In this document: one piece after another, positions 19,648-61,073 of the stretch
Position numbering within the stretch: the first letter of the stretch is position 1
Layout: each line of letters starts with the position of its first letter
Virus record (IMG/VR): IMGVR_UViG_3300047160_025247
DNA: 64,000 nt
Origin: a virus
Direction: 5' to 3' (one strand)
Notes under the pieces: generated by a model
Told to the model about the DNA's origin: nothing
What the model saw: only the letters and a program-made list of their open reading frames with translations
Database searches by the model: none
Made by a program: the position numbers and the translations under genes

Positions 19648-19665
19648 TGTCCGTTCTAGCGGACA
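19648..19665. promoter_or_regulatory. palindromic site TGTCCG-N6-CGGACA (perfect copy)
   Basis: TGTCCG-TTCTAG-CGGACA upstream of the capsid operon. Confidence 0.7.
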
Positions 19666-19760
19666 CGACCGTAACGGTTTCAGCAACGCTCGATCGTTTT
19701 GTAACTGAATTTTCAGGGACGTACGCGTTTCGAAACTGACTAAGGGCGGTTGATGGATTG

Positions 19761-19794
19761 TGTATTTACACGGTACATGTACATATACGCGTAT
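19761..19794. promoter_or_regulatory. cluster of short palindromes overlapping the start of the RHH-capsid fusion gene
   Basis: TGTATTTACA (19761-70), GTACATGTAC (19773-82), ATACGCGTAT (19785-94). Confidence 0.5.
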
Positions 19795-20512
19795 GACAAA
19801 AAAGGCGATGACCCTCCGGCTCGATGACGACCTGCTGAAGTGGTACCAGGGTCTCGGCGCCGGCTACCAATCCATCATTCAGCGCGTTCTGCGCGACCAC
19901 CAACGCAACACCGGAGGCGACATGTCCAAGTCACGAGCACCCAAGGGATCACCGTACGTCGAACCTGCTGGTCCCGATGCGGGCCCGGTGCTCGTCGAGG
20001 TCGACGATGTGGTGCAGGGAAAGATCCGCTTGGAGCAGATCGACTGCCCGCTCTACGACACGCAGGTGCAGACCAACCCCTACACGCTGCCGAAGAATCG
20101 GCGCGCCGATGCGCTCGAACGACCGCTGCCGATCCTCTTCTTCAACTCGGGGATGGCGGGGCGCTCCGACGCCTACACCAACCTCTACACCTGTGGGCAG
20201 CTCAGCTGGCCGAAGAAGTTCGACGCCTCCGGTATCGAGATGGTCATCAACGATCTGATCGAGCTGAAGGATCTCGTCCTGCGCTTCCACGTCGGCGAGG
20301 TGGTGCAGAAGACGATTCCGCTGCTCAACATGAAGATCGTGGAGGACCGCAAGCGGAAGACGATCACCTGCTCATCGCCGGTATGGAACCCGACGGTGCA
20401 CATCCCGTCGGTGCAGCACTTCAGGGTCGAGCTGAGCACCGGCGAGCAGTATCTTGGCGACACCGAGGTCCGCTGCACGCTGCTCGGCAAGCTCAGCCGC
20501 GAGATTGTGTAG
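19793..20512 (+). CDS. BrnA-like ribbon-helix-helix domain fused to a paralog of the putative major capsid protein
   Basis: N-terminal TLRLDDDLLKWYQGLGAGYQSIIQRVLR; C-terminal QGKIRLEQIDCPLYD...TNLYTCGQLSWPKKF...LLGKLSREIV aligns with 17680-18255. Internal GGAGG-ATG at 19922. Confidence 0.75.
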   Translation: MTKKAMTLRLDDDLLKWYQGLGAGYQSIIQRVLRDHQRNTGGDMSKSRAPKGSPYVEPAGPDAGPVLVEVDDVVQGKIRLEQIDCPLYDTQVQTNPYTLPKNRRADALERPLPILFFNSGMAGRSDAYTNLYTCGQLSWPKKFDASGIEMVINDLIELKDLVLRFHVGEVVQKTIPLLNMKIVEDRKRKTITCSSPVWNPTVHIPSVQHFRVELSTGEQYLGDTEVRCTLLGKLSREIV

Positions 20513-20954
20513 CGCTGCGCGTGGGGATCTTGAGGTTGTCGGGGTCGGTCACCGCTTCCACGATGTCTTGCCAGTCGCCGACGCGCGCCTTGTTCAGGAA
20601 GGCGCGGTCCGTCTCCGCGGCGCGGTAGCGGATCGCGCGCAGCCGCGCCTCGCGCAGCTTCCGGTACATCACCGGCCCGAAGATCCAGTTGTGCGAGTGC
20701 ACGATGAACTCGGTGTCCTCGTCGCGGAAGCGTGCCGCGTGGTCGACGATCCAGTCGACAACGTCCTCACCGGTGCCAGGATCCACCGCGCCGAACTGGT
20801 CGAGATCGTGGTCGAGCAGCACGAGATCCCAGCGGTGCGTGCGCAGCTGGTCGATCGCGTCGCCGGAGGTCTCAACGTGCACCGCCTCGGGCATTGCCTC
20901 GGCGATGAGCGCGTGGCGTACCGGGTCGTCATCGAGAAAGAGGATGCGCTTCAC
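20493..20954 (-). CDS. stand-alone receiver-like protein (cyclic-phosphate processing receiver family)
   Basis: ILFLDDD...DLVLLDHDL...GEDVVDWI...IVHSHN. Confidence 0.75.
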   Translation of the reverse strand: MKRILFLDDDPVRHALIAEAMPEAVHVETSGDAIDQLRTHRWDLVLLDHDLDQFGAVDPGTGEDVVDWIVDHAARFRDEDTEFIVHSHNWIFGPVMYRKLREARLRAIRYRAAETDRAFLNKARVGDWQDIVEAVTDPDNLKIPTRSATQSRG

Positions 20955-21202
20955 GATTCACCTCGGGGGAGCACGAAGCCTTTCCTCACCGCGAAGAAGG
21001 ATTCGGTCACGGTTCCGTCACTGTCGATGTAGGCGCGCACCTTCGGCGTCCACGGGTAGTTTCCTACGACGATCTTGAACCGCCCCAGCTCCGACTCGAT
21101 CACCATCATGCGTACGCGGCGCTCGCGCGCTTCCGCTGCCGCTTTCGCGACGCGAGGCCCCAGCTCCGTGTAGCTGACCGCGTCGTCGAGCGACATCACC
21201 AT
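20951..21202 (-). CDS. hypothetical protein
   Basis: 83-aa ORF with ATGA-type coupling to both neighbours. Confidence 0.55.
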   Translation of the reverse strand: MVMSLDDAVSYTELGPRVAKAAAEARERRVRMMVIESELGRFKIVVGNYPWTPKVRAYIDSDGTVTESFFAVRKGFVLPRGES

Positions 21203-21203
21203 G

Positions 21204-21527
21204 TCAGGTAACCGGAGGCGGATCGGGCTGCTCTTCGCCGGTGCGGATCGTGGTCTTCTGGTTGCCGCGGTGCTTTGGGATGAGCGCGGTGGTTTTCGGC
21301 TGCGATGGGAGCGCAACGGGCGCGCGAGCGCGGAGTCGAACCCAGAGGCGCGAGCCACAGAGCGGGCAGTGCTTCGGTGGGCGCACCAGCGGAGGCTGCG
21401 TGCCTGGAAGGGACGGCGGCGCCATCGGCGGCCGATTGCTGAGCGAGACGTGGATCTGTCCGCCGCACGCTGGGCAGTCGACGAGCGCTGATGGCAGCTC
21501 TGCAGGCGTCGGCTGGTACTCGTCCAT
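21204..21527 (-). CDS. zinc-ribbon protein
   Basis: VDCPACGG and KHCPLCGS. Confidence 0.6.
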   Translation of the reverse strand: MDEYQPTPAELPSALVDCPACGGQIHVSLSNRPPMAPPSLPGTQPPLVRPPKHCPLCGSRLWVRLRARAPVALPSQPKTTALIPKHRGNQKTTIRTGEEQPDPPPVT

Positions 21528-21581
21528 GACCCCGTGCGCTCATCGTGCACAACGTTTGAATTACGTCCACGCGAGTAGCTA

Positions 21582-22082
21582 TCACCCGCGCAGCCATGAG
21601 TCGACGGTGAAGATGTTCCCGGGGCGCCGCTTGATGAACAGATTGCCGGCGGAGTCGCGCACGAGCGCGGGCATCACGCGCGGCGAGTAGTGGTCACCGC
21701 CTTTGTGCCCGGTGTCGCCGAAGGCGTGGTGCCACTGGTACGAGTTCTTCTCAGGCGAGCGCAGCGAGCGCGGCACGTCGTAGACCAGCGCCCGCACGAG
21801 GCCGATCTGCTTCAGCTGGCCGCGAGGCTCGGGGATGTCGACGAGCGACGTCGACTGCGCGGCGGTGCTGTGGAATCGGCGGTGTGCCTTCGCGACGACT
21901 GCAGGGAGCTTGCCGCCGGCGTTCTGCCGCACGATCGAGCCGATGCCGAAGCGCCGGCCCTTGGGCTGCCACACCAGCCACTTGCCGTTGAAACGCTGCG
22001 AGCGTGTGCGCCCAGTCTTGGGGTCGAAGATCTCCAGGCGGAGCAGGCGCCCGATGCCGAGCACTGCACCCTTGGCCGCCAC
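21582..22082 (-). CDS. basic hypothetical protein, probably virion-associated
   Basis: Last gene of the minus-strand structural run; YQWHHAFGD...MPALVRDSAGNLFI. GTG start uncertain. Confidence 0.55.
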   Translation of the reverse strand: MAAKGAVLGIGRLLRLEIFDPKTGRTRSQRFNGKWLVWQPKGRRFGIGSIVRQNAGGKLPAVVAKAHRRFHSTAAQSTSLVDIPEPRGQLKQIGLVRALVYDVPRSLRSPEKNSYQWHHAFGDTGHKGGDHYSPRVMPALVRDSAGNLFIKRRPGNIFTVDSWLRG

Positions 22083-22089
22083 GGTCAGC

Positions 22090-22434
22090 TCAGCGGCGAC
22101 GCAGGACCAGAAACCACAGCGCGAGACCGGCGACGGCGCCGATGGCGAGCTGCTTCTTCGAGACCGCACCGACGATCGGCAGGTTGATGTCGCCGTCGAG
22201 GAGACCGGCAAGGTCGTTCGGCACGGTGTCGATGCCGTTGGACAGCGAGCGGCCGAGCGGGTTGCTCAGCGACTGGTCCATCCGCGGATCGAGGTTCTGC
22301 GCGTGCGGGGCGGGCAGCACGCGCAGGCCAGGCGTGCGCAGCACGCGTGTCTTGGTGACTTCCTCGGTGAGCAGCTCGCCGGCGTTGCGGCCGGCGAAGA
22401 CGTCGTCGAGGTCATAGGACATGTCGCGCTGCAT
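22090..22434 (-). CDS. small protein with C-terminal TM anchor
   Basis: Ends LAIGAVAGLALWFLVLRRR. Confidence 0.7.
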   Translation of the reverse strand: MQRDMSYDLDDVFAGRNAGELLTEEVTKTRVLRTPGLRVLPAPHAQNLDPRMDQSLSNPLGRSLSNGIDTVPNDLAGLLDGDINLPIVGAVSKKQLAIGAVAGLALWFLVLRRR

Positions 22435-22476
22435 GGTGGATCCTGGGTGCGGGCGGTGGAGGTGAGGCGGCCGAGC

Positions 22477-23118
22477 TTACTTCCGCTTGCCCTTCTTGAG
22501 GTACAGGAAGAGGCCGATCGCTGCGGCGATGCCGCCGACGGCGAGCATGGTGCCGCTGATGCCCTTGTGCTGGCCCATGTTGGTCAGCATCTGCATCGCG
22601 GTCATGCGCTCGGTCGCGGCCTGCTGCGCCTGGGCGTTCGCCGCGGCAGCCTGGGCGTTCGCCGCCGCGATCTTCTGCTGCTGGGTGTTCGCGTAGATCT
22701 GCCCGGCCTGCTGCGCGAGCGCGACGCCGCTCTGGGTCAGCGCGTTCCAGTCGGTCGGCTGCGACGCCGGGGGCGGCGAGGGCGGGCCGTAGACCGGATC
22801 GGCGCCGAGGCCAGCCATGCCGGGGATGAACGCGCCGTGCTGGCGGTGCGCCGGCGCAACGGTCATCACGGCCTTGGCGCGGCCGGCGTGCACGATGCGC
22901 TCACGACCCTGCGGCTTGGTCACGATGCCGCGCGAGCGAGCGCCGCGGTGCGGGCCGGTGTCGCCCATGCCGCGGTTCGCCTGCGTGAACACCTCGACGT
23001 CCTGGGCGTCCTCGAACGGGTTGTCCGACTCCGCCTCGACCGAGATGGTGTTGCCGAACGGCTGCAGATCCACCTTCTGGATCTTGCGACGGTTGCTGGC
23101 GATTTCGTAGAGGGCCAT
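22477..23118 (-). CDS. membrane protein with C-terminal TM anchor and an MAGLG motif
   Basis: IPGMAGLGADP, Q/A-rich helix, ends IAAAIGLFLYLKKGKRK. Confidence 0.75.
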   Translation of the reverse strand: MALYEIASNRRKIQKVDLQPFGNTISVEAESDNPFEDAQDVEVFTQANRGMGDTGPHRGARSRGIVTKPQGRERIVHAGRAKAVMTVAPAHRQHGAFIPGMAGLGADPVYGPPSPPPASQPTDWNALTQSGVALAQQAGQIYANTQQQKIAAANAQAAAANAQAQQAATERMTAMQMLTNMGQHKGISGTMLAVGGIAAAIGLFLYLKKGKRK

Positions 23119-23122
23119 GGGC

Positions 23123-25939
23123 TTACTTTCGCTTCAGGAGGAGGTACGCGCCGAGACCGACGAGGCCGAGGGTCAGCGCGGAGGAGCCGACGGGGAAGGC
23201 GCCCATGCCGCTGAAGGCTGCGCCCGGCTGGTTCGCGTAGAGCGAGGCCTCGGAGGCATCGTCATCCGGGCCGGCATCGGCGGTGTTGGTCGCGTCGCCG
23301 CTCGGCGCACCGCCGCGGCGATGGCGATGGCGACGGCGGCGAGGCTGTGCCGCGGCGGCGGGGGCCGGCTGTGCGACGGCGACCACCGGCGCGCTCGCGC
23401 CGACGGAGTCCATCGCCTGGACTGGGCTCTTGAAGAGCGAGCCGAGCCACGACAGGAAGCCGGAATCGGCGCTCGGCGCCAGGGTCGGTGCGGCGCTCGC
23501 CGCCGCGGCAGCGACGGCGTCGGGCGTTGGAGCGCCGTTCTCGTCCGAGGTCGGTCCCATGTCCTCGGGACCGAAGGTGTCGACCGGCGTGGTGCTGTTC
23601 GAGGGGTCGCCGTAGTAGGACTGCTGCGCGACCGTCGGCGACTCGTCGGCCGGGTAGTCCTCCGACGACGGATCGAACGCGGTCTCGTCAGGGCTTGACG
23701 GCGAGTCGTACATCGTGTCCGGCGTCGGCGAGGATGCGCCTGGGTCACCGCCGCTCGGGTCGAAGTCCGAGCCGCTCGGGTCGCTGCTGTTGCCCGGGTC
23801 GAAGCTCGGATCGTAGGCCGACGGATCGCTGTTCGGGCCACCCGGCGTCGGGTACATGCCGCCACCGCCGCCGGAGGACGGATCCATGCTCGGATCGTAG
23901 TAGGACGGATCGTTCGACGACGGGCCGAGGTTGTTCTGGTTCTGGTTGGCGTAGGTCCACTGCCCGGTCGCCGGGTCGTAGACGTCGCCGGTCGCCGGGT
24001 CGGTCCACTTGCCGGTCGACGGGTCGTAGACGTAGCCGGTCGACGGGTCAGTGTACGGCTGGTTCGAGCCGGCGGTGGGCGCTGTGGGCTGGCTCGGCGC
24101 GCTCTGACCCTTCGGCTTGCGGAACATCGACTTGATGTTCGACGGCTTCACCGTGTTGAACAGCGAGCGGCCGGCGTTGTTCATCGAGCGCGCGATGTTC
24201 AGGTGCGACTGGACGATCTTCTGCGTCAGCTTCACCGGCGCGGTGGCGATCTTCGCCGGGATCGACGAGACGGCCTTGGTCACCTGCTGAAGCGGCTTGG
24301 TGATCGCCTTGGTCACCGAATGGAAGCTGAAGCGGCCGAGGTCACCGGCGAGGTCGTCGGAGTAGAGCACGCGGCCCATCTGGTCGCGCACCACAGCACC
24401 CTTGATCGGCGTCTTCAGCGGCGAGCGCGGGATCGCGCGGGCGCCGCGGTCGAACAGCTCCTTCTGCGCGGCCTGCACGGCCGGGACATCGTGGGCGACT
24501 TCGACGAGCGTGCCAACCTTGGTCGCCGCATGGCGCACCGGATCAAGTCCGGTCGGCAGCTTGGCGACGAGGTCCGGCGTGGCGAACGCGTGGTCGAGCG
24601 TCTTCAGGCGCGCGTAGGTGCGGCCGGCGGCGCGGCGGCGAACGTAGCTGCCGTTGGACGACTTCGCGACGAGCGCGCGAGCCTTGGCGGCGATGGCGGT
24701 CGCGAGCTGCGACACCGCGTTGGCGGCGCCAGCCTTCTCGTTGGCGACCGGATCCGCGCCGAGGCCGAAGATGGCGATCGAGCGGTTGACCTTGTCGGCG
24801 CGGTGGCGCGCGTGCTTCGCACGGTTCTCGGCGTGCACATGCGCGGCGACGGCCTTGTGCAGCGGGTCGGCCTTGCCGGCGACGCCCTGGAAGCCGGCGC
24901 AGGCGTTGACCTCGTGCTCCAGCGCCGACAGGTAGTCGGCGAGGCCGCCCAGCTCGCCCACCGTTGGGCCACCGGCGTTAGCCTTCGGCGCGAGGTTCTG
25001 CTTGCGGATGTTCACCGTGCGGATCGTCGGGCCGTGCACGCGCAGGTTCTTCACCGGCACGGTGTGCAGATAGCTCGTCATCACCTGCTCGGCGCGAGCG
25101 GTGAGCGGGCCATACGGGCGCAGCGAACCGCGAGGCGCGGTCTGCATCGGGTTCACGAGGTTGACGCTCTGGTCGAACATCGCGTCGAGATCTTCGCTCG
25201 GGCGCGTCACCTCGGCGGTGTTCATGATCCGACCGCGGCTGCCGGTGTCGGTGATGCGCGACTTCAGCGCCGGCACGACGGACGAGAGGTTGCGCACGTC
25301 GAGGTAGGACGGAGCGGAAGCGTAGGCGCCGAGGTTCATGTTGCCCAGTCCTGACAGGTCGGTGAAGAGCTTCTTCAGCTTGACTTTACTTGCCGGCGCT
25401 TCTTTTCCAAGCGGCCACTCGCGCATGATCGGATCCGCGGGGACCACTTCGCCGGCGTGCGCGTAGTTGCCCGGCGGCATGATGATGTGCAGGTAGACGT
25501 GGCTGTAGCGGCCGGGCTGGGTGCCGATGACGACTGGGTAGCTCTGGATCCCGATCGAACCGAGCAGCGCCATCTCCAGGATGGTCATGTCGTCGCAGTC
25601 GCCCGCCTGCGAGTTGAACGCCGTCTCCTCCGGGTAGCTGAGGGTCTCCTGGTTCAGCGTCGAGCCGTCGTCGGCGTCGCCGATCGGATCCTTCACGTAG
25701 CGGATGTGGTCGCGGACCCACTCGTGGATCGCCTTCGACATCCCGTAGTAGTCTTTGTTCGCGACGTTGGCCGCGTTCACGATGTTGATCGCGAGGGCGC
25801 GGATCTTCGCGCTGCGCGAGCCGTACTCGCCCTTCGCCATCTTCGACATCATCTGCACGGTGGCGTCGACGCCGGCGTTGCCCTCCGGCAGACGTCCGCG
25901 CTGCACATCGATATCGCCGTTGGCGAGATGCATGGTCAC
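23123..25939 (-). CDS. 938-aa polyprotein: N-terminal transglutaminase-like cysteine protease domain, G[LM]G-delimited modules, YDP repeats, C-terminal TM anchor
   Basis: WVRDHIRYVKDP, AGDCDD (Cys), YSHVY (His), PADP (Asp); ends LGLVGLGAYLLLKRK. Confidence 0.75.
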   Translation of the reverse strand: MTMHLANGDIDVQRGRLPEGNAGVDATVQMMSKMAKGEYGSRSAKIRALAINIVNAANVANKDYYGMSKAIHEWVRDHIRYVKDPIGDADDGSTLNQETLSYPEETAFNSQAGDCDDMTILEMALLGSIGIQSYPVVIGTQPGRYSHVYLHIIMPPGNYAHAGEVVPADPIMREWPLGKEAPASKVKLKKLFTDLSGLGNMNLGAYASAPSYLDVRNLSSVVPALKSRITDTGSRGRIMNTAEVTRPSEDLDAMFDQSVNLVNPMQTAPRGSLRPYGPLTARAEQVMTSYLHTVPVKNLRVHGPTIRTVNIRKQNLAPKANAGGPTVGELGGLADYLSALEHEVNACAGFQGVAGKADPLHKAVAAHVHAENRAKHARHRADKVNRSIAIFGLGADPVANEKAGAANAVSQLATAIAAKARALVAKSSNGSYVRRRAAGRTYARLKTLDHAFATPDLVAKLPTGLDPVRHAATKVGTLVEVAHDVPAVQAAQKELFDRGARAIPRSPLKTPIKGAVVRDQMGRVLYSDDLAGDLGRFSFHSVTKAITKPLQQVTKAVSSIPAKIATAPVKLTQKIVQSHLNIARSMNNAGRSLFNTVKPSNIKSMFRKPKGQSAPSQPTAPTAGSNQPYTDPSTGYVYDPSTGKWTDPATGDVYDPATGQWTYANQNQNNLGPSSNDPSYYDPSMDPSSGGGGGMYPTPGGPNSDPSAYDPSFDPGNSSDPSGSDFDPSGGDPGASSPTPDTMYDSPSSPDETAFDPSSEDYPADESPTVAQQSYYGDPSNSTTPVDTFGPEDMGPTSDENGAPTPDAVAAAAASAAPTLAPSADSGFLSWLGSLFKSPVQAMDSVGASAPVVAVAQPAPAAAAQPRRRRHRHRRGGAPSGDATNTADAGPDDDASEASLYANQPGAAFSGMGAFPVGSSALTLGLVGLGAYLLLKRK

Positions 25940-25943
25940 AGCC

Positions 25944-25961
25944 TATCCGTTATTTCGGACA
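25944..25961. promoter_or_regulatory. TGTCCG-N6-CGGACA-type site (1 mismatch)
   Basis: TATCCG-TTATTT-CGGACA, 4 nt upstream of the polyprotein ATG. Confidence 0.65.
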
Positions 25962-26033
25962 AGGGGATTGATTTTTCCCGAGCGATGCATGTGTGTCGAT
26001 TTACGCGATCCAGCCGGGTCAAGAAGGGTTGGG

Positions 26034-27167: not shown

Positions 27168-27178
27168 GGTAGCGTCCT

Positions 27179-27498: not shown

Positions 27499-27505
27499 GG
27501 CTCGA

Positions 27506-27709: not shown

Positions 27710-27737
27710 GACAGACTCCTGGGTGAGGGTGAAGAAA

Positions 27738-30306: not shown

Positions 30307-31002
30307 TCAGCGCATCTTCAGGAGCAGACCCACACCGATGACCGCTGCGGCCGTGATCATCAGCGTCTTCATCGCACTGGCACCGGCCGCTGCGGCCTGC
30401 GCGCCGGCGTTCGCCGGGATGTCGCCGTCGGCCAGCTCGGGCGCGGTGAGGTAGCCGACCGCGACCATGTCGCCGTCGTCCTCCTCGCCGAAGCCCGGCA
30501 TGAAGCCGGAATTGGGCGCCATCGGGCGCGAGCGCGCCGGCGTGCCCATGATGCGCGGCTTCTGCACCTTGCGCAGCTTCGGCGCGCGATGCGCGCGGGC
30601 GCGGGCGTGGCCGGCGAGATCGGTGTCGTCTCCCATGCCCGGCATGAAGGTGCCGGCGAGGTCACCGAACATCGACTCGATGTCGCCCATACCCGGCATG
30701 AACTTGCCGCCGTGGGACGGGAGGCGGTTCGTCACCGGCTGCGCGACCTTGCGATCGAGCGGGATCCGCATCGAGCGATCCATGTGCGGGGTGATGTTGC
30801 GCGCCTTCGGCGCCGGGACGCGAGCGCCGAGCGGGATGCTCAGCGACTGCGCGCCGAGGTCGCCCATGCCCGGCACCATCGGCCCGTGCGGCACCGGCAT
30901 CTGGTGCGACATCCGCGGTGTGATGTTCTTGTCCATCCGCGGCGTGATGCTGCGACTGTGGGTGGCGGCGCGCAGATGGGTCGCAAGGCGGTTGCGGTGC
31001 AT
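30307..31002 (-). CDS. repeat-containing protein with four PG[MF]G motifs and C-terminal TM anchor
   Basis: VPGMGD, MPGMGD x2, MPGFGE; (N/S)ITP(R/H)M x3; ends AAAVIGVGLLLKMR. Confidence 0.75.
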   Translation of the reverse strand: MHRNRLATHLRAATHSRSITPRMDKNITPRMSHQMPVPHGPMVPGMGDLGAQSLSIPLGARVPAPKARNITPHMDRSMRIPLDRKVAQPVTNRLPSHGGKFMPGMGDIESMFGDLAGTFMPGMGDDTDLAGHARARAHRAPKLRKVQKPRIMGTPARSRPMAPNSGFMPGFGEEDDGDMVAVGYLTAPELADGDIPANAGAQAAAAGASAMKTLMITAAAVIGVGLLLKMR

Positions 31003-31037
31003 GGCAGTTTTTCCTTGACGTGAACGGTGTTACTCTA

Positions 31038-31055
31038 TGTCCGTTTTATCGGTCA
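31038..31055. promoter_or_regulatory. TGTCCG-N6-CGGACA-type site (1 mismatch)
   Basis: TGTCCG-TTTTAT-CGGTCA, 35 nt upstream of the 31002 ATG. Confidence 0.65.
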
Positions 31056-31060
31056 GCAAC

Positions 31061-32155: not shown

Positions 32156-32629
32156 TCACTTCCGCCGGAGCAGGAAAAATCCACCGAGGAGCACCGCGCC
32201 CAGGACGGCCGCGCCGATCATCAGCTCCTTCTTCGTGCCGCTGTTGTCGGCCGGCTTCTGCGCAGCCTGTACGGCCGCGTTCACCGCCTGCTGAGCTTCG
32301 GCCGCTTGCTGCTGTGCCGCCGCGGCCTGCTGCTGCGCTGCGGCGCTCGCCGCCTTCTGATCCTTCGAGTCGATCTTCGCCTGGCGCACGGCCATGAAGG
32401 TGCCCGTGAGCGCGGTCAAGGCGTTGATGGCGTTGGTGATCGTCGAGACAGTGCTCGCGGTGCTCGCCGCGGTCGCGGCTTCCTCACCGTAGCCGAGCGC
32501 ACCGAGGCTCGGGTTGTCGAGCGTGATGCTGCTGGCGAAGGGTCCGTTGGCGTGCCGAATGTAGACCGGGTCGCCACCGTGGAACGCGGTCGACCGGCTC
32601 GGGAAGGCAACTGTCCGCTGGTACGCCAT
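32156..32629 (-). CDS. membrane protein with Q/A-rich helix and C-terminal TM anchor
   Basis: Likely start MAYQRT; SLGALGYG; ends VLGAVLLGGFFLLRRK. Confidence 0.7.
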   Translation of the reverse strand: MAYQRTVAFPSRSTAFHGGDPVYIRHANGPFASSITLDNPSLGALGYGEEAATAASTASTVSTITNAINALTALTGTFMAVRQAKIDSKDQKAASAAAQQQAAAAQQQAAEAQQAVNAAVQAAQKPADNSGTKKELMIGAAVLGAVLLGGFFLLRRK

Positions 32630-32678
32630 GCCGGAGTATGGCGTGTCCGTTCTTTCGGGCAACGCCCGCTCGCAACCC

Positions 32679-44916: not shown

Positions 44917-45726
44917 ATGGGTGAGCTGATTCTCGGTAACTCGGCTCCGATCTTCACCGACACGCCGGTGGCCTCGGGGCTGGAGACGCTCATCAACGCG
45001 CAGCTCGCGCCGTTGCTGTCGCACTTCATCCTCGGCATCGGCTTCACCTCAGCCGATCAGGTCCGGAACCTCGGCAACGAGTTGCGCCTCACGGTCAGCT
45101 ACGAGACCGGCGGCACGACGATCACCAATCCGTACAAGATCAAGGGCTTCCAAGCCGTCACGATCAGCGACCTCGTGACGCAAGTCGCCGCGTGGATGGC
45201 TGCGAACCCGACCTACTTCTTCTCACCGCTCTTCCTGCAGCAGGTGACCGGTCCGCGCCGCAAGCAGCCGATCGTCGCGCTCGTCGTCTACAACGAGAGC
45301 CTCGCCGACGGTGAGGCGAACTGGCTCGCCGGCGGCAACCCGGGCGGCGCGACTCCGGGCGGCGCAGCCGGCGGCGATCTCAGCGGCACCTACCCGAACC
45401 CGAACGTTTTCGCCGGCCAGCTCAGCTCGACGCCCGGCGCGACGGCGACGGTTCTCGATTCGGTGTCGGCCGCGACCTACAAGGCCATGAAGTGGTCGAT
45501 CGAGGCGATCAAGGGTACCGCGACGTGGTACAGCGAGATCTCCGCGGCGCATGACGGCACGACCCCCGTCTGGACCGAGGGCAACGTCGAACTCGCGCCG
45601 GGCGGCGGCACGTTCGACTTCACGAACAGCGTCGACATCTCGGGCGGTCTACTCCGGCTCATCACGACGCCGTCGAGCACTGGCTGGACGTTCAGGGTGC
45701 GACAGCTGACCAGACTCGCCGCTTAA
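44917..45726 (+). CDS. putative spike/vertex structural protein
   Basis: AGGDLSGTYPNP fibre-type motif; N-terminal domain is paralogous to 52150-52551. Confidence 0.6.
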   Translation: MGELILGNSAPIFTDTPVASGLETLINAQLAPLLSHFILGIGFTSADQVRNLGNELRLTVSYETGGTTITNPYKIKGFQAVTISDLVTQVAAWMAANPTYFFSPLFLQQVTGPRRKQPIVALVVYNESLADGEANWLAGGNPGGATPGGAAGGDLSGTYPNPNVFAGQLSSTPGATATVLDSVSAATYKAMKWSIEAIKGTATWYSEISAAHDGTTPVWTEGNVELAPGGGTFDFTNSVDISGGLLRLITTPSSTGWTFRVRQLTRLAA

Positions 45727-53562: not shown

Positions 53563-53574
53563 GAGCCCACGCGC

Positions 53575-54204
53575 ATGCAGCAGATGGGCTACCGCTTCAT
53601 CGAAGCGTGTGCGTTGCTTCCAATGCTGTTCGTGCCGCAGAACCGTCAAAACGCGGTGTTCTGCACAGGCGCGCAGGCTGAGACCTTCGCCGCGCACTGC
53701 CTCCGCTGGCGCGACGTCAACTGCGTCTACCTCCGCGAGAAGCCGATCCGTCCCCTCGCCGAGCGCGACGACCCGATCTTCAAGGACAAGACCAAGCAGA
53801 TCATCGTCGCAGCGATGCCGCCGGTCGGCTCCTGTGCCGCGGTGCTAACGTCGCCAGGTGAAGACCCCGACGCCTACCTCGGCGCGCTCGCGGCCGACGG
53901 CGTGGTCTGCGTCACTCGATACGATGTGACCGAGGTGCAGCCGATGCTCTGGCATATGCGCCGGCTCTTCCCGCGGTCGGTGATCCCGTGGCGGGAGTAC
54001 CTTCCCCAGGAGATCTACGGCGCCATCGCCAGCCCTCGCGGCGTTCCGACCCAACAGCGCAGTCCGCCCCAGAGCGCGAAACGCCTGAATAACCAGTACC
54101 TCAAGGCCATGTTCAACTTCGGCCAGGACGAGCTACCGATGGTATTCGGCGGCATGTCCGGTAAAAAGGACACAGCAGCCCCAGGGAAGACGAGCCATGC
54201 CTGA
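53575..54204 (+). CDS. degenerate spermidine-synthase-like (class I SAM fold) protein
   Basis: Order LLPMLFVP...AVF...CLRWRDV...LAADGVVCV...LFP...LNNQY..AMF follows SpeE, but the GGGDG motif is absent. Confidence 0.45.
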   Translation: MQQMGYRFIEACALLPMLFVPQNRQNAVFCTGAQAETFAAHCLRWRDVNCVYLREKPIRPLAERDDPIFKDKTKQIIVAAMPPVGSCAAVLTSPGEDPDAYLGALAADGVVCVTRYDVTEVQPMLWHMRRLFPRSVIPWREYLPQEIYGAIASPRGVPTQQRSPPQSAKRLNNQYLKAMFNFGQDELPMVFGGMSGKKDTAAPGKTSHA

Positions 54205-54769: not shown

Positions 54770-54772
54770 GTC

Positions 54773-55279: not shown

Positions 55280-55899
55280 TCGGCGCACTCATCGGCGGCA
55301 TCGCGACTCTCGCGCTCGTGGGCAATCCGCCGCACCGGACGCAGCGTCGGCGGCGGCGCAACCCGCTTCGTCGCGGCCGTTCTCGCGCCGTGGTCAGCGG
55401 AAATATCCGCGAGCTGATGCACGCCGGCTACCCACAGAAGCAGGCGGTCGCTATCGCGTTGAAGAAGTCGCGCAACCCGCACCTCGGCAACAAGGGTGAC
55501 GAGTTCAAGAAGCACGCCGCACTGCGCGTGCTGCAGGACGCGATCGAGAAGCAGTACGGCAAGCGCCTCTCGCTCGATCAGGTGCAGAGCTTCCTCAACG
55601 ACGCCGAGCGCTTCATGCGCCGCGAGCACGCGAGGCGGACCTTCCGCGTCGTCGAGGGCCGCCGGCGTGCGAACCCGGTCTCGGTCGACACGCTAGCGAT
55701 GCCGGTGGCGAGCATGTTCTGGCGCAAGCACGGCTACCAGTCGCCCGGCCACGCCGAGGATCTCGCGATGATGGCGAAGCGCGGCTCGACCGCCCAGAAG
55801 CTCTGGGCGCGCGTCGCCCAGATCCTGAAGGGCTGGCTCTACGGCGGAAAGAAGCGCTCGAACCCCTGTTTTAGGGGCATGCGGAAACACAAGCACTGA
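55276..55899 (+). CDS. NP-delimited basic polyprotein with hydrophobic N-terminus
   Basis: LALVGNP, RRRNP, SRNP, RANP and RSNP separate small modules including SGNIRELMHAGYPQKQAVAIAL. Confidence 0.75.
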   Translation: MIGALIGGIATLALVGNPPHRTQRRRRRNPLRRGRSRAVVSGNIRELMHAGYPQKQAVAIALKKSRNPHLGNKGDEFKKHAALRVLQDAIEKQYGKRLSLDQVQSFLNDAERFMRREHARRTFRVVEGRRRANPVSVDTLAMPVASMFWRKHGYQSPGHAEDLAMMAKRGSTAQKLWARVAQILKGWLYGGKKRSNPCFRGMRKHKH

Positions 55900-55953
55900 T
55901 CCACGAACCTTGTACACCCCCTTTAACCCCATAGGCTATGACCTGAGGTACCC

Positions 55954-56304
55954 ATGCAGCGCGACCCCCACGACGACCTCCTCCTGACCAAGCGGCCGAC
56001 CACGGTCGTGACGCAGGCCACCTCGCTCCTCGACAACGCCCCGGCGCCCTTCGGCGACGTCGACGACGAGGAGTTCATCTTCGCCGGCATCGCGGCCGAT
56101 GACGGTGATCTCGACAACGCCGCCACCTCCGCCGCGGCCCGCGCCGGCGTGATGTCGCGCGTGCCGAACGTCGCACCGGTCACCAGCCCGCTCAATCCGC
56201 CGCTGACGCCGCCCGCGCAGCCGGCGCCGAGCATCTGGCCGGTGGTCGCCATCCTCGGCGGTCTCGTCGGTATCACCTGGCTGATGAGCAGCAAGCGGAG
56301 CTGA
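55954..56304 (+). CDS. acidic small protein with C-terminal TM anchor
   Basis: Ends VVAILGGLVGITWLMSSKRS. Confidence 0.7.
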   Translation: MQRDPHDDLLLTKRPTTVVTQATSLLDNAPAPFGDVDDEEFIFAGIAADDGDLDNAATSAAARAGVMSRVPNVAPVTSPLNPPLTPPAQPAPSIWPVVAILGGLVGITWLMSSKRS

Positions 56305-56309
56305 GCTTC

Positions 56310-56585
56310 GTGAGCGGCTCGTACATGCAGTCGTACCTCAGCGGCGACGAGTTCGAAGTCGACGCGAGCCAGGCCACCTCGCCGCTCGCGCCGGCCTTCG
56401 GCGACGCACCGCCGGCTTCTGACCTCGTCACGCTCCCTGGTGGCATCGTCGTGCCACGGAAGACGCTGCTGACGCTCCTGGCGGTCGCCGCCGCGGTCGC
56501 GCTCTTCCTGTACCTCCGCAAGCGTGAGCGCCGCCTGCGGCGCCTGGAGCGCGCTTCGGCGAGCGAGGAAGGCGGCGACGAGTGA
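56310..56585 (+). CDS. small TM protein
   Basis: LLTLLAVAAAVALFLYLRKRERR. Confidence 0.7.
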   Translation: MSGSYMQSYLSGDEFEVDASQATSPLAPAFGDAPPASDLVTLPGGIVVPRKTLLTLLAVAAAVALFLYLRKRERRLRRLERASASEEGGDE

Positions 56586-56959
56586 ACCAGCAGCGGCCGG
56601 TGATGAACCAAGTGCTGGGCGGTCTGGGACAGATCGTCAACACGGGGTTGTTCCGCACCGCCGCGAAGAACTGGTGGATCACCGCGCCGCTCGGCCTCGC
56701 CGCCTACACGGTGCTGCGTGAGCGCCACAAGAAAGGCCAGCTGACGCTCGCGAACGCGATCAGCGACCTGACGCCGATGGTCACGCTAGTCGCGACGATC
56801 GTGATCCTCAACAATGTGCTCGAACAGCGTGAGGGCGCCACGCCAGCACCTGTCGCGGCGCGCCTGCCGCTTGGGCCCGTGAAGGACGCCAGCTTCACGC
56901 CGATGTCGCGCAACGACCAGCCGATCCCTGCCATCCCTGTCTCGGGAGCCATGACATGA
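56582..56959 (+). CDS. small two-TM protein
   Basis: VLGGLG motif; WWITAPLGLAAYTVL; LVATIVIL. Confidence 0.65.
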   Translation: MNQQRPVMNQVLGGLGQIVNTGLFRTAAKNWWITAPLGLAAYTVLRERHKKGQLTLANAISDLTPMVTLVATIVILNNVLEQREGATPAPVAARLPLGPVKDASFTPMSRNDQPIPAIPVSGAMT

Positions 56960-57345
56960 CCTTCCGCCGCCAAGCGCTCCCGCTCCACGCCGGTCGCTCG
57001 ATCAACCACACCAACGGCCGCGGCCTCGGCACGAAGCAGATCGTGAAGCCGCAGAACGGCCTGACGCTCGGGCGCCGCCCAATCATGCCGATCGTCCGCG
57101 GTCAGGGCATGTTCGGCCCCGCCGAAGAGTACAAGCCAGCCCTGATCGGCATGGGGCGCCGCCCCGTGTTCGCGCGCAGCGGCAACGAGGACTCGCAGCA
57201 CCTCGCCGACGGCGAAGACCACCCGTGGGCGCTCGTCGGCGACATGGAGCCGGCCGAGATCGAGGCGAACAAGCAGGCGGACGTCAAGTCCTACGCCGTC
57301 GGCGCGCTCGCCGCGCTCGCGCTCGGGATCCTCGCCTTCCGCTGA
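56956..57345 (+). CDS. small protein with LIGMG motif and C-terminal TM anchor
   Basis: Ends AVGALAALALGILAFR. Confidence 0.7.
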   Translation: MTFRRQALPLHAGRSINHTNGRGLGTKQIVKPQNGLTLGRRPIMPIVRGQGMFGPAEEYKPALIGMGRRPVFARSGNEDSQHLADGEDHPWALVGDMEPAEIEANKQADVKSYAVGALAALALGILAFR

Positions 57346-57352
57346 GCCCACC

Positions 57353-57640
57353 GTGGCGAAGATCAGCCGCGCCGCATTCAGCCACGAGGTCCGCTACTCG
57401 TTCCACTGCCCTGGCTGCGGCTACGGCCACGCGTTTCGCGTTCAAGGCCAGAGCCCGATCTGGGACTGGAACGGCAGCGTCGACAAGCCGACCTTCCACC
57501 CCTCGCTACTCTACCTGCCCACGCCCGGCGGCACGATCAAGCGCTGCCACCTCTACGTGTGCGACGGTATGATCCAGTATCTCGACGACTGTGACCACGC
57601 GCTCGCCGGCAAGACCGTTGCGATGGAAGATGACGCCTAG
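57353..57640 (+). CDS. DUF6527-like Zn-binding protein
   Basis: FHCPGCG..H...W.WNGS.DKPTF.PSL...CH....G.IQYL.DC.H.LAG. Confidence 0.7.
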   Translation: MAKISRAAFSHEVRYSFHCPGCGYGHAFRVQGQSPIWDWNGSVDKPTFHPSLLYLPTPGGTIKRCHLYVCDGMIQYLDDCDHALAGKTVAMEDDA

Positions 57641-58482
57641 AGATTCAGCCCGAGCGCGAGCAGTTGTGCGTTGTCGCGCTGCCAGACCTTCCAGGGACCG
57701 TTCGGCCTATAGGCGCTGCCGGCCCACAGGATCGGCCCGCGCAGGCTGATGATGCGGCGCACGAAGTATGGATCGCCTTCCTCCGGTCGCACCTGCGTCA
57801 GCAGGTCGACGTAGTCGCGATAGGCGTCACGACGCATCTCGACTTCCTGAGGAGGCGGTGCGGGAACATCGGTCTCTTCCGGCGGGACGAAGGTGCTCTC
57901 GATCGACGGTGATGCCGCGTGGCTTGAGAATTTCCCTCGGTTCATACTCGACGTCACATCCGACGGCTTCAGGCCCATGGCTTCGAGATCCTTCTCGGTG
58001 CAGTGCTTCCACGGCCTGTTGGGATCGAGAAACTTCCCATCTTCCCCGAGAATCTGCGCAATAGCAGCGATGAACTCTCTCGGGATGATGTTCGATTGAT
58101 CGGTGATGAACTTGACCTTGCCCCACAACGGCACAGAGAAGCGATCTCGGAGTAGCAAGTAGTCGACAAACCGACGGATATTGACGTTGATGACTTGATC
58201 TTGCGGACGGTCGAGATGAAACATCTCCTGTTCAGTGATAGCTCCAGTTGCCTCGACCATCGTGGCTTCCGAACGCTGTCCCGTCAGGATCAAGTCGATG
58301 TAGTGTTTCAACCCTTCTTTATCGTCTGCAAAAGCCCAAACGAACTTCGACGGGATGTCTGGTGACAACGCAGGGAAAACGTTCACCGCTCTCCACCCTC
58401 GATTACCGAGTGATCGGAGCAGGTAGCAGCGATAGCTCCAGTTCGCCCTGAGATTCGGCGGACGCCCCGGCATTCCGCTCAT
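57637..58482 (-). CDS. hypothetical protein (lower GC3)
   Basis: ATGA overlap with the upstream gene; start MSGMPGRPP. Confidence 0.6.
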   Translation of the reverse strand: MSGMPGRPPNLRANWSYRCYLLRSLGNRGWRAVNVFPALSPDIPSKFVWAFADDKEGLKHYIDLILTGQRSEATMVEATGAITEQEMFHLDRPQDQVINVNIRRFVDYLLLRDRFSVPLWGKVKFITDQSNIIPREFIAAIAQILGEDGKFLDPNRPWKHCTEKDLEAMGLKPSDVTSSMNRGKFSSHAASPSIESTFVPPEETDVPAPPPQEVEMRRDAYRDYVDLLTQVRPEEGDPYFVRRIISLRGPILWAGSAYRPNGPWKVWQRDNAQLLALGLNL

Positions 58483-58973
58483 GGCCGCGCCATCAGCTTG
58501 GTGTTGAGCAGCTCCCACGTCTTCGCTTCGGCCGCGCCGTCGAACAGCCACAAACGGATGGACCAAGCCACCTTGACGACTTCGCAGGCTTCTTTGGCTG
58601 TCGCTTCGACGTCCTGCGCTCGAATGCGGGCGTTGTTGCGGAAGAGGGTGAAGGCCTCGGTGGTGCGCTGCAGCGCGATCTCTTCGGTCTCTGAGTCGTT
58701 CGCGGCTTGGACGACCTTGTTCATGTCGTTGGTGTTCTCGGCGAACTGCACCGGAACGCGCAGGAGGGTTGCGAAGGCGTAGCTGCTCAGCTCCAGCATC
58801 GCGCTGTCAGCCGGGCGGAACGCCACGAGCTGCGACGGTGGATAGCTGTAGACCAACGAGAAGCACGGTGTGCCGTCCCACGCCGTCGCCGCGAAGCGCA
58901 GCTGCCACACCGGCGCGCTGAGGTCGACCGCGGCGATGGGGGCGCCGGGTCGACCTGCGAGCAGCTTCGGCAC
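58479..58973 (-). CDS. hypothetical protein
   Basis: GGGAGG RBS region; operon coupling. Confidence 0.65.
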   Translation of the reverse strand: MPKLLAGRPGAPIAAVDLSAPVWQLRFAATAWDGTPCFSLVYSYPPSQLVAFRPADSAMLELSSYAFATLLRVPVQFAENTNDMNKVVQAANDSETEEIALQRTTEAFTLFRNNARIRAQDVEATAKEACEVVKVAWSIRLWLFDGAAEAKTWELLNTKLMARP

Positions 58974-58976
58974 GAG

Positions 58977-60986
58977 TTAGCCTCCCGACTGCGCGGCGGT
59001 GCCGTTGGCCGGCGGATCCGCGGGCTTCTCGCCCTCCGGCTTGGCCTCGGCGGCCGGCGGCTGCGCCTTCGGCGTGCGCGGACGCTTGGGACGCGGAGTC
59101 GGCTTGTCGGCCGCGGCCGGCGGCGTGGTGCCCGCAGGCGGAGTCGTCGCCGCCGGATGGGCCGCCATCGGCTGCTGGGTCTGCTGCTCGCTCGTCTCGT
59201 CGATGACGCGCGCCTGCGGAGGCGCCGCACGCTGGCCGGGCGCCGGCTGGTTCGCCTTCACGAACTGCGCGGTCTCGATGATCGCGTTGTCCATGCGGTC
59301 GCGCGTGATCGTGCCGCTGATCATCGCGCTCAGGTCGGCGAGCGCCGACATGAGGAACTCGACGTTCTTCTCCTGCTCGACCCATTGCAGCAGCACCGGG
59401 TTCACGAGCACGATCGGCGAGCCCAGCTCCATGATCTTGTCGCGGTTGTTCGCGGCCACCGCCTCCAGCATCGCCGGCGGCGCCCACTGCTGGACCCACT
59501 TCAGGAGGTTGAAGCGCTGGCCCGGCTCGATCTCGCCGACGCTCAGACGGCGGATACTGTCAAGCGAGATTCGGATGCGCTCGGCGTCAGGGTAGTCGGC
59601 CGGGTTGCGCGAGCGGCGAGGAGCCTGCTGCGCCTGGGCCTGCTCGGCGGTCGCCGGGACAGCGGCCGGCGGAGGAACCTTCCCACGCCGCGGTCGCGGC
59701 TGCTGCTCGGCGGCCGGCTGCTCGGTGACCACCTGGGCCTGAGGAGGCTGCTGCTGAGGCGCCGATTGCTGCAGCTCGGGGCCCGGGGCCTGCTGACCCT
59801 GCTGCTGCATGCCGGCGAGGAGTGGACCCGCGATCTTCGCGATCTGCGCGAGCGTGCCTTCCTCCTTGTCGCCACCACCGCTGGTCTTCAGCTCCATCAG
59901 CTCCTTCATCGTGCCGAGGGCGCTCTTCATCGTCAGGCCGAGCACCTCGCTCTGGATGCTGGCGGAAGCCTTGACCTGCTCCTGCTGCTGCGCGAGATTG
60001 CTCTGCGCCATCGACTGCATCAGCTTCGCCATCTCGGCCATCATCGTCGCGTCGAAGCTCTTCTCGGGCTTCTCGTTCATCTTGGCCTTGAACATCTCGA
60101 TCAGCAGCTGGTCGGTCGGGCTCGGCCCGTGATCCTTCTTGCCGAAGATCTTCTCGATCAGCGGCACGAGCGCGGGCAGCGCGCTGACGATCAGCGTGCG
60201 GAACTCCGAGCGGCGCTTCTCGGCGCGCTCTTCGCGCTCGGCGGCGTCGCGGCGGGAGCGCTCCTCGGCTTCGCGCTGCTGCTGCGACAGCTGCTGCATC
60301 ATCTGCATGGTGGCGCTCTGCTGGCTTGCGATCAGCGAGGCGATCTCGGTGCCGCGGCGAGCTTCGTCCTGGCGCTCGGCGCGCAGCGCGCTGGTGAGCG
60401 ATGTGGTGTCGAGCGCAGGCGGCGGAGGGGGCACCTGGAAGGATGGAGCCTGCTGGAAGCCGAGATCCAGCTCGGGCTCGCCTTCACCATTCAGATCGGC
60501 GGCCGGCTGATCGTCGACGCTGCCCTCTTCGCCGATCTCGATGTCCCAGGCGGTGTCCACCATCGGGCGGTTCGCCTTGTCGTGGAAGCGACCGATGAAC
60601 TTGCCGCCGTTGGGGAACTTCTCCAGCAGCTTCGACGCCACGTAGTCGTCGGTCGACGTCCCGTCGGCGGTCGCATCCTCCAGATCCTTCACCACGATCT
60701 GCAGCACCGGCTTCGAGCCGAAGGCGATCTTGCCATCCTTCGCACGGTAGACGACGACGCGACTGTCGAGCGCCTTCGGGGCCACACTCTCGATCCGCTT
60801 CCGCTCCGCGCTGCGCTCAATCCGCTGCTGCTGCACCTCGGGATCCGCCGCCGGTCGGCCGACCGGGTTCACCGCCTGCTGCCCACCGCCGGGGGACATC
60901 ACCGGCGCGGAGCGGGCGAAGCCGGGGGACATCACCGGCGACGCCGGCGGAGCGATGGGAGGAAGAGCGGGGGAGGCGCCGTCCAT
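58977..60986 (-). CDS. 669-aa protein: Pro-rich ends, globular N-domain, long Gln/Met-rich coiled coil, helical C-domain
   Basis: Strong GC3 bias on the minus strand; GAGG RBS. Confidence 0.75.
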   Translation of the reverse strand: MDGASPALPPIAPPASPVMSPGFARSAPVMSPGGGQQAVNPVGRPAADPEVQQQRIERSAERKRIESVAPKALDSRVVVYRAKDGKIAFGSKPVLQIVVKDLEDATADGTSTDDYVASKLLEKFPNGGKFIGRFHDKANRPMVDTAWDIEIGEEGSVDDQPAADLNGEGEPELDLGFQQAPSFQVPPPPPALDTTSLTSALRAERQDEARRGTEIASLIASQQSATMQMMQQLSQQQREAEERSRRDAAEREERAEKRRSEFRTLIVSALPALVPLIEKIFGKKDHGPSPTDQLLIEMFKAKMNEKPEKSFDATMMAEMAKLMQSMAQSNLAQQQEQVKASASIQSEVLGLTMKSALGTMKELMELKTSGGGDKEEGTLAQIAKIAGPLLAGMQQQGQQAPGPELQQSAPQQQPPQAQVVTEQPAAEQQPRPRRGKVPPPAAVPATAEQAQAQQAPRRSRNPADYPDAERIRISLDSIRRLSVGEIEPGQRFNLLKWVQQWAPPAMLEAVAANNRDKIMELGSPIVLVNPVLLQWVEQEKNVEFLMSALADLSAMISGTITRDRMDNAIIETAQFVKANQPAPGQRAAPPQARVIDETSEQQTQQPMAAHPAATTPPAGTTPPAAADKPTPRPKRPRTPKAQPPAAEAKPEGEKPADPPANGTAAQSGG

Positions 60987-61055
60987 GATGTGTAACCTCG
61001 GGTGGTTTGAGCTTGACTCCCAAGGTTACGTTACCCGTTTCAGAAAGGCAAACCC

Positions 61056-61073
61056 GTTCCGTTTTTTCGGACA
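61056..61073. promoter_or_regulatory. TGTCCG-N6-CGGACA-type site (2 mismatches)
   Basis: GTTCCG-TTTTTT-CGGACA, 69 nt upstream of the 60986 ATG. Confidence 0.55.

Follow-up and report, generated by a model that had tools for sequence, protein, structure and literature searches.

A conserved 18-bp palindrome at gene junctions of an uncultured soil virus-like element, a putative multi-operator switch

In phage P1, the Lpa and C1 regulons each combine one phage protein and one short repeat, present at many dispersed promoters: the C1 repressor has more than ten scattered operators, and the repeat recognised by Lpa is centred near -22, in place of the -35 element. In the P2 family, late promoters carry a TGT-N12-ACA dyad centred near -55, associated with P2 Ogr and P4 Delta. 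The subject of the present analysis is a palindrome, TGTCCG-N6-CGGACA, located at gene junctions of a 64,000-nucleotide (nt) stretch of viral DNA (IMG/VR record IMGVR_UViG_3300047160_025247), referred to in its full length as the window. The stretch belongs to an uncultured, virus-like element of about 100 kb, represented in soil assemblies by its own contig of 106 kb and by contigs of relatives of 102-104 kb. The described systems most similar to it include the late genes of P1, where Lpa binds an inverted repeat of 9 bp that is conserved at 11 promoters (PMC10695390); HipB, encoded by E. coli hipBA, whose operators follow the consensus TATCC-N8-GGATA (PMC3376134); and the controller proteins (C-proteins) of restriction-modification (R-M) systems, which act as activators or as repressors depending on the operator bound (PMC2647307). 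By analogy, the palindrome would work like the operator systems of HipB, Cro or C-proteins and, at the level of the regulon, like the dispersed operators of P1.

With at most one mismatch allowed, TGTCCG-N6-CGGACA is found seven times in the window, against 0.28 expected occurrences, and none of 100 shuffled sequences reached this number; with up to two mismatches, 11 occurrences are found against 4.9 expected. These counts, like the weight-matrix scan, refer to the 64-kb window of the 106-kb source contig. The matrix was symmetrised and built on window copies and their orthologs, keeping the copy at 54155 out of the training set. Eight sites, reported in Table 1 and named here by their first position, score between 19.7 and 28.2 bits, and the next-best match in the window scores 11.0 bits; Markov shuffles seldom exceeded 15 bits and one out of 20 shuffled genomes reached 19 bits. 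Strings of the form CCG-(A/T-rich 6)-CGG occur seven times in the window, and six of them are family members. The resulting consensus is TGnCCG-wwAnAA-CGGACA, i.e. TGTCC-N8-GGACA, an 18-bp dyad with a 6-6-6 layout, whose halves are spaced by roughly one turn of the helix. Among 14 distinct copies, collected from the window and its relatives, positions G2, C4, C5, G14 and G15 are invariant.

Five of the copies had been listed in a first-pass annotation, made from the letters of the window, and all of them were found again where it had placed them, with the same mismatches; the perfect copy at 8164 and those at 32644 and 54155, with one mismatch each, are additional. The annotation had also described its sites as intergenic, which agrees with the gene map, the copy at 44857 starting with the TGA stop of the upstream gene. 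In the complete set, six of the eight sites are intergenic, including 32644, since its ortholog places the start of the 157-amino acid (aa) gene at ATG 32629. The other two, 8164 and 54155, lie within the last codons of the upstream open reading frame (ORF), and each of the eight sites marks a junction behind an upstream gene. The further statement that the spacers start with TT holds only when sites of minus-strand blocks are read on the plus strand, and not as a rule for the sense strand. Read in the sense direction, seven of the eight spacers are A-rich, matching the general AT skew of coding strands in the window, and the 44857 copy and its ortholog are T-rich; a strict orientation of the spacer was dropped on these two grounds. 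The spacers of 19648 and 54155 are less A/T-rich than those of the other copies.

Relatives were identified through homologs of the 351-aa protein encoded downstream of site 19648, and parts of two close and of several more distant genomes were compared. The close genomes are JAWVGW010000181.1 (loci L001, L008 and L020) and JAWVGW010000178.1 (loci L002 and L021). Across these two, the palindrome is kept at five orthologous junctions, with diverged flanks. Before the 938-aa gene, the 18-mer is identical in the window, in L001/L008 and in L002 (911/938-aa gene), at about 45% identity of the upstream flank. Before the 351-aa gene, it is found 8 bp ahead of the -35 element in the window, in L001 (GGTCCTTTAAAACGGACA) and in L002 (TGTCCGATAGAGCGGACA). 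The 231-aa junction has in L008 the copy TGACCGTTAAAACGGACA, together with TTGTTG-16-TAGAGT, and the 18-mer of 32644 is identical in L008, before the 150-aa ortholog of the 157-aa gene. The junction of the 269/275-aa gene reads in L020 TGACCGTTTTTTCGGACA-8-TTGAAC-16-TAGGAT-6-ATG, where both linkers have diverged in sequence, not in length. The more distant contig L016 contains a variant, CGTCCGATATGTCGGATA, before the 1070-aa ortholog of the 938-aa gene, and a second one, TGACCGATCTATCGGACT, on a stop codon. Conservation in relatives, proposed as a check in the first-pass annotation, is thus observed at orthologous junctions of two close genomes and, in variant form, in a third. Additional candidate matches are located at 7390 of L002, inside a coding sequence, and at 8783 of L016, a weak one. 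For 54155 and 61056 the comparison consists of the window copies only. No motif copy is contained in the fetched DNA of L003-L007, L009, L012-L015 and L017-L019, and the only copy in that of L010 and L011 is one with a GC spacer, described below.

These data make it extremely improbable that the palindrome is a product of chance, or a selfish dispersed repeat devoid of a regulatory role. The motif is indeed short, and in a window with a G+C content of 64% CCG and CGG strings are common; against this stand the excess over expectation, the prevalence of intergenic sites and their maintenance at orthologous positions while the flanks diverge. Moreover, no flanking repeat extends beyond the 18 bp.

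In L009, L010, L013 and L015, where the promoter of the 351-aa gene lacks the palindrome, the sequence (T)CC(C)GAAATAG stands directly against TTTTGAC, just upstream of the -35 element. It is similar to a single half-site of the window motif together with the spacer, and could represent what is left of a site, its precursor or an UP-like element.

Table 1. Copies of the palindrome and associated features. Positions refer to the window; sites are named in the text by their first position.
Feature	Position	Strand	Description
Palindrome TGTCCG-AAACTA-CGGACA, perfect	8164..8181		15 nt before the HTH start codon, within the final codons of the RHH-like ORF
Palindrome, perfect	19648..19665		Ends 8 bp before the -35 of the 347/351-aa gene promoter; centre at about -51.5
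Palindrome, 1 mismatch, sense TGTCCGAAATAACGGATA	25944..25961		Directly before the 938-aa transglutaminase-domain gene (ATG 25933)
Palindrome, 1 mismatch	31038..31055		Fills the spacer of TTGCTG-16-TAGAGT (31032-31059, -) of the 231-aa gene (30307-31002)
Palindrome, 1 mismatch, sense TGCCCGAAAGAACGGACA	32644..32661		Overlaps promoter-like tTGCCC-16-CATACT; 14 nt before ATG 32629 of the 157-aa gene
Palindrome, 1 mismatch	44857..44874		Opens with TGA, stop codon of the upstream 608-aa glycosyltransferase gene
TGTCCG-GTAAAA-AGGACA, probable member, 1 mismatch	54155..54172		Within the final codons of gene 53575-54204; ATG 54197 is 24 nt further on; 19.7 bits
Palindrome, weakest member, 2 mismatches, sense TGTCCGAAAAAACGGAAC	61056..61073		21.0 bits; 74 nt downstream of the tmRNA gene
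XRE/Cro-type HTH protein P0061, 80 aa, candidate palindrome binder	8197..8439	+	Pfam, AF2 model, fold match
RHH-like ORF, uncalled	7965..8234	+	Tail read across the 8164 palindrome, overlaps the HTH start; sequence pattern only, no Pfam match
347/351-aa gene, conserved	18472-19515/19527	-	Downstream of the 19648 site
Sigma70-type promoter TTGCAA-16-TAGGAT of the 347/351-aa gene	19612..19639	-	Precedes a structured leader of about 100 nt, also conserved
HTH, helix-turn-helix; RHH, ribbon-helix-helix; AF2, AlphaFold2; tmRNA, transfer-messenger RNA.

Departures of the copies from dyad symmetry are all one-sided. In the 14 copies, 11 of the 84 stem cells are unpaired, no pair is changed on both sides, and the pairing observed is no better than in shuffled controls. 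Deviations which are one-sided and never compensatory are characteristic of dimeric DNA-binding proteins that recognise half-sites, and the pattern points to a protein-DNA operator and not to an RNA hairpin or a terminator. The proposal, contained in the first-pass annotation, of a site bound by a dimeric regulator gains support in this form, as a conserved, dyad-symmetric motif marking several predicted transcription units in the large unannotated blocks, whose genes are putatively those of the virion.

It is very improbable that the motif acts as a hairpin of RNA or single-stranded DNA, whether as a signal for processing or stability, as an operator of translation, as a factor-dependent terminator or as a hairpin promoter like those of phage N4. 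Perfect copies do fold, with a 6-bp stem and a 6-nt loop (-11.6 to -11.7 kcal/mol), the sites are located at junctions, often 4-24 nt before the next start codon, and the spacers are mostly A-rich on the sense strand. However, the latter feature matches the AT skew already mentioned, every deviation breaks a pair without being compensated, and the imperfect copies at 31038 and 61056 fold no better than shuffled sequences. In addition, the copy at 19648 has no co-directional upstream gene in the window, and the two sites centred at -51.5 are upstream of the predicted starts, hence outside the regulated mRNA. No T-run follows the palindrome at any window copy, and Rfam gave no match at the sites; an intrinsic terminator was rejected on the former ground, and the RNA hairpin was dropped for want of covariation across copies. 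Two other readings were discarded: that of the A/T spacer as an archaeal TATA box with a B recognition element, given the presence of bacterial -35/-10 elements, Shine-Dalgarno sequences and a tmRNA, and that of a promoter for an extracytoplasmic function sigma factor or for sigma54, since spacing and motifs do not match.

The first-pass annotation had tentatively suggested an activator on the ground that sigma70 boxes were not obvious near the sites. This reason fails, because promoters of the form TTGNNN-16/17-TANNNT are present at four sites. The pattern matches 14 times on the two strands of the window; four of these matches abut sites, for about 0.3 expected, on the strand of the downstream gene, and these promoters are conserved in relatives. 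At 44857, the palindrome is followed by 8 bp, TTGAAC, 16 bp, TAGGAT (44883-44910), 6 nt and the ATG at 44917 of the 269-aa gene. Site 61056 ends 4 bp before TTGCCT-17-TAACCT (61023-61051, -) of the 669-aa gene, with its centre at about -48.5. At 25944, the last two bases of the palindrome open a -10-like TAGGCT, 6 nt before the ATG, with no recognisable -35. Only the two middle positions of this TAnnCT hexamer vary among three genomes, and the sharing of bases explains the conserved 'mismatch' CGGATA; should the 938-aa mRNA be leaderless, the dyad centre would be at about -19.5.

Three sites are positioned upstream of a promoter (19648, 44857 and 61056) and three on the core promoter itself (31038, 32644 and 25944). 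Upon inspection, no recognisable promoter was found at 8164 or at 54155, both contained within operons, before the next start codon. The dyad centres fall at about -51.5, at about -48.5 and between -24.5 and -19.5, apart from the two promoter-less sites. Palindrome, -35 and -10 are conserved as blocks, separated by diverged linkers.

Every relative retains the promoter and the leader of the 351-aa gene, whether the palindrome is there or not. The leader, of about 100 nt (19528-19612, -), is orthologous in L001-L004, L006, L009, L010 and L015 and includes the motifs GCATGC...GCGT, a hairpin, CACCCGA and GCAGCATA. Its consensus stem has compensatory changes in 9 of 15 pairs, and no Rfam family matched it. 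For the 269-aa gene, the position of TAGGAT only 6 nt before the ATG predicts an mRNA that is probably leaderless. Similar TAnnnT-like hexamers are located 5-7 nt before the ATG of several genes (44905-44919, 25931-25945, 32627-32640, 8458-8473). The 938-aa, 157-aa and VRR-NUC genes lack a Shine-Dalgarno sequence, and upstream of the 269-aa gene the only one is an AGGA inside the hexamer, which suggests that leaderless mRNAs are common in the element.

The protein binding the palindrome is a candidate at this stage, and is most likely the small XRE-type HTH protein encoded just downstream of the 8164 copy, the putative operator for autoregulation of this gene. Its AF2 model has a predicted local distance difference test score (pLDDT) of 84.6, and it resembles XRE dimers of known structure, the best fold matches in PDB being HigA2, HipB, C.Esp1396I, C.AhdI and DdrO, with template modelling (TM) scores of 0.52-0.62. 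The family is tiny, with 16 matches among 1.84 billion representatives. In L021, the order of elements is ThyX, a 327-aa gene, an RHH-like ORF, the palindrome CGTCCGATACTTCGGACA, 19 nt and an 84-aa HTH ortholog; the latter is 55% identical to the window protein, keeps the recognition helix LPRSIVY(N/D)AL and matches Pfam HTH_3 with 23.3 bits, above the cut-off of 23. In L010 and L011, the perfect-core sequence TGACCG-TACCGT-CGGTCA is found in the tail of the RHH ORF, about 50 nt before a more distant HTH homolog. A copy of the putative operator thus stands beside the HTH gene in the window (15 nt), in L021 (19 nt) and in L010/L011 (about 50 nt), not in L022.

In the window, the RHH-like ORF is coupled to the stop of a 335-aa gene by an ATGA overlap, and its tail runs 38 nt into the HTH gene. 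Homologs of this ORF were detected in L021, L022, L010/L011 and L003, and the succession of RHH and HTH genes is shared by L021, L010/L011 and L022. L003 has the RHH gene alone, leading straight to the VRR-NUC promoter: the syntenic HTH gene is absent, as is the motif from the 21 kb fetched. Among the binders listed in the first-pass annotation, the small XRE/Cro-like HTH protein fits best, having a perfect copy directly upstream, and the RHH-capsid fusion (19760-20512) fits poorly. The fusion was rejected, as it is missing beside the L001/L002 sites and present in L009 and L017, where the motif is not.

HipB is a small autoregulating HTH dimer of XRE type, as the window protein would be, and its operators share the 5-8-5 layout. 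When its half-site is compared to TGTCC-N8-GGACA, four of five bases match, and one half of the 25944 copy is exactly TATCC. In fold, HipB chains rank with the best matches of the window protein, at a TM score of about 0.6; in contrast, a phmmer search against all PDB chains, with E up to 10, lists no HipB chain. No HipA-like kinase adjoins the HTH gene, which is followed by VRR-NUC and preceded by the RHH-like ORF and the 335-aa protein, for which Pfam gives no match. Furthermore, window sites are single and dispersed over eight junctions, whereas HipB has four clustered operators at one promoter. By kinase content and sequence homology, the locus is not a hipBA module.

C-proteins such as C.PvuII, C.Esp1396I and C.AhdI are comparable to the window protein in size (about 80 aa), XRE fold and presence of palindromes upstream of their own gene, and they are its best sequence matches in PDB, although not at a significant level (E about 0.5-1). 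C-boxes are, however, pairs of GACTnnnAGTC joined by TGTA, unlike the single 18-bp dyads of other sequence described here. No restriction or cognate methylase gene adjoins the HTH gene, and many unrelated promoters would be targeted. The locus is therefore not a C-box system, on account of both the boxes and the absence of R-M genes.

The P1 regulons resemble the window in having one short repeat at many dispersed promoters, and differ in that the geometry of the window sites is heterogeneous and most of its promoters have a -35 element; no homolog of Lpa or C1 came up, though no search was aimed at them. The window motif may also be read as TGT-N12-ACA, and three of the eight sites are centred between -48.5 and -51.5, a possible likeness to the Ogr/Delta targets of P2. 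In the window, however, conservation falls on the inner CCG/CGG, the majority of sites lie away from -55, and the three near -50 have a -35. Pfam scans of about 60 window ORFs, a set from which some small ORFs were left out, revealed no Ogr_Delta zinc finger, and membership in the P2 Ogr group is unsupported.

The favoured model combines the operator with an element-encoded HTH regulator into a mainly repressive, self-limited switch with multiple operators, and is placed, as a whole, slightly above even probability; a dual role is its main variant. The HTH protein would bind the palindrome as a homodimer, regulate its own gene through the perfect copy ahead of its start, and control at least seven other junctions, all before genes of large, unannotated blocks, putatively coding for virion components and read by the sigma70 RNA polymerase of the host. 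At 31038, 32644 and 25944 the bound protein would cover the core promoter and exclude polymerase. At 8164 and 54155 it would form a roadblock inside the operon, just before the next gene. At 19648, 44857 and 61056 it could block read-through or contacts of the C-terminal domain of the polymerase alpha subunit, or could instead stimulate the promoter. The genes would be held off until the regulator is titrated or lost. The repressive sign is inferred: a repressor or roadblock is favoured because at five of the eight sites, three on the core promoter and two inside operons, the location is one usual for repression, where polymerase would be hindered, because all sites lie behind an upstream gene, and because the nearest fold relatives are repressors.

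Several observations weigh against this model. As to the binder, the window HTH protein matches Pfam HTH_3 with E=7e-4 and 20 bits, below the 23-bit cut-off, and has a weak match to HTH_26 as well. The HTH homolog of L022 (46% identical, on a 1.2-kb contig) has no such palindrome upstream. L010 and L011 have the HTH gene, yet the site adjacent to it is the only one in the DNA fetched, and the comparison of HTH gene and motif covers the window, L021, L010/L011, L022 and L003. Other DNA-binding proteins are conserved along with the motif, namely a BlaI-like winged helix (5530-6012) and the RHH ORF. As to the sign of regulation, the gap to the -35 is exactly 8 bp at two independent loci, which is more in line with activation than with repression, the 938-aa target gene has no recognisable -35, late genes of phages are usually under positive control (PMC10695390), and the transcription starts are predicted ones.

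The palindrome might be the operator of another protein, such as the BlaI-like repressor, the RHH ORF product, the RHH-capsid fusion or a host regulator; this is judged rather improbable. The BlaI-like gene is kept in the motif-bearing L002 genome, with no motif copy near it. The RHH ORF overlaps the copy of the 8164 type in the window, in L021 and in L010/L011, but its protein, in which an ISIW strand is conserved, occurs as well in the motif-less L003, and pairs better with a different palindrome, GTTACGTAAC. The distribution of the RHH-capsid fusion does not follow that of the motif. A host factor is suggested by the origin of the three closest genomes from the same kind of soil samples, since they may share a host, but it would leave the fixed HTH cassette of three lineages unexplained.

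The palindrome GTTACGTAAC is the core of an exact 13-mer, GTAACGTAACCTT, found twice in the window, at 8452-8464 (+) and 61022-61034 (-), over the -10 element (TAACCT) of the VRR-NUC and 669-aa promoters. The core is kept in the VRR-NUC promoter of L021 (about 12620) and of L003 (about 19440). These sequences may constitute a second operator, perhaps of the RHH protein encoded just upstream.

With operator and HTH protein unchanged, the regulator could be primarily an activator, or a concentration-dependent dual regulator similar to the R-M controller proteins, an alternative considered unlikely, though with more than a token claim. The regulator would switch on the main promoters through contact with RNA polymerase from about -51.5, would work at the sites near -20 in the manner of Lpa at P1 late promoters, where a -10 is paired with an inverted repeat, and would negatively limit only its own gene. 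Such a model is kept alive by the spacing of exactly 8 bp at two unrelated promoters and by the 938-aa gene, whose promoter lacks a -35: the gap is maintained at two non-homologous loci, in three and two genomes, with diverged linkers, and the 938-aa gene has its -10-like TAnnCT 6 nt before the ATG. The precedent of the 11 Lpa-dependent promoters of P1, together with the positive control of late genes in well-studied phages (PMC10695390), is in keeping with it, as is the ability of C-proteins, of the same fold class, both to activate and to repress (PMC2647307). On the other hand, promoters adjoining the sites are already equipped with good hexamers at -35 and -10, and in all distant relatives the promoter of the 351-aa gene persists, and is taken to work, in the absence of the palindrome. 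Among the core-overlapping sites, the offset relative to the -10 spans 5 bp (-2, 0, +3), which is ill-suited to a contact on one face of the helix. Finally, two sites lack any promoter, and the closest fold matches are repressors.

A possible, though doubtful, history is that the RHH-HTH cassette, with a small HTH gene akin to those of HipB and C-proteins and with its own operator, began as a purely self-regulating unit, as in L010/L011, and was then co-opted as a genome-wide timer in the sub-lineage of the window, L001, L002 and L016. Under this equally tentative scheme, operators would have arisen 8 bp before a -35 or on leaderless core promoters, so that the regulator would boost virion promoters and shut others as its concentration rises. 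If true, the birth of a regulon could be traced in a soil virus lineage of about 100 kb that is otherwise unannotated. The mechanism as such, a phage HTH protein acting on dispersed palindromic operators, is textbook matter. Nearly every gene of this lineage is without annotation, and the putative 18-bp operator, its candidate regulator and the conserved sigma70 promoters, of which several are apparently leaderless, would provide a first testable map of its transcription units. They would also delimit a small predicted regulon and allow its spread among relatives to be traced.

The gene content of the window was analysed by comparing about 60 ORFs to PHROGs and Pfam, with nearly no matches in the target genes. 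In the left third, Pfam matches identify ThyX, glycosyltransferases, a methyltransferase, the BlaI-like repressor and the VRR-NUC nuclease. In the large co-oriented blocks bearing the sites, only a transglutaminase-like domain, GP88 and a GT4 glycosyltransferase were matched; given this near absence of family matches, the label 'structural' or 'late' for the target genes is an inherited inference, not a result. The features of the 351-aa protein (18472-19527, -) appear atypical of a capsid protein: a very basic N-terminal third, a hydrophobic middle rich in Gly and Ala, and tandem GYVDSPAYQGVG repeats. When 25 kb of the window were compared to a phage collection by Megablast, no match was obtained. 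Searches of viral contigs with the 669-aa protein, the 351-aa protein alone or the HTH alignment found no related loci, nor did searches of genome contigs with the 351-aa and HTH alignments give a match. The sequencing runs listed for the element are of soil DNA only, with no RNA run among them.

Two stable RNAs are suggested by Rfam comparison. A marginal tRNA match is located at 17535-17611 (+), with 29.8 bits for a cut-off of 29, where ARAGORN reports none. The 511-nt gap beside the 669-aa gene, apparently empty, is occupied by a full-length tmRNA gene at 61147-61521 (-), matching RF00023 with 81 bits and E=8e-30 and not called by ARAGORN; it is either an element-encoded tmRNA or the boundary of a host ssrA. 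A promoter-like sequence, TTGCAT-16-TAGGAT, is found just upstream of it, at 61547-61574.

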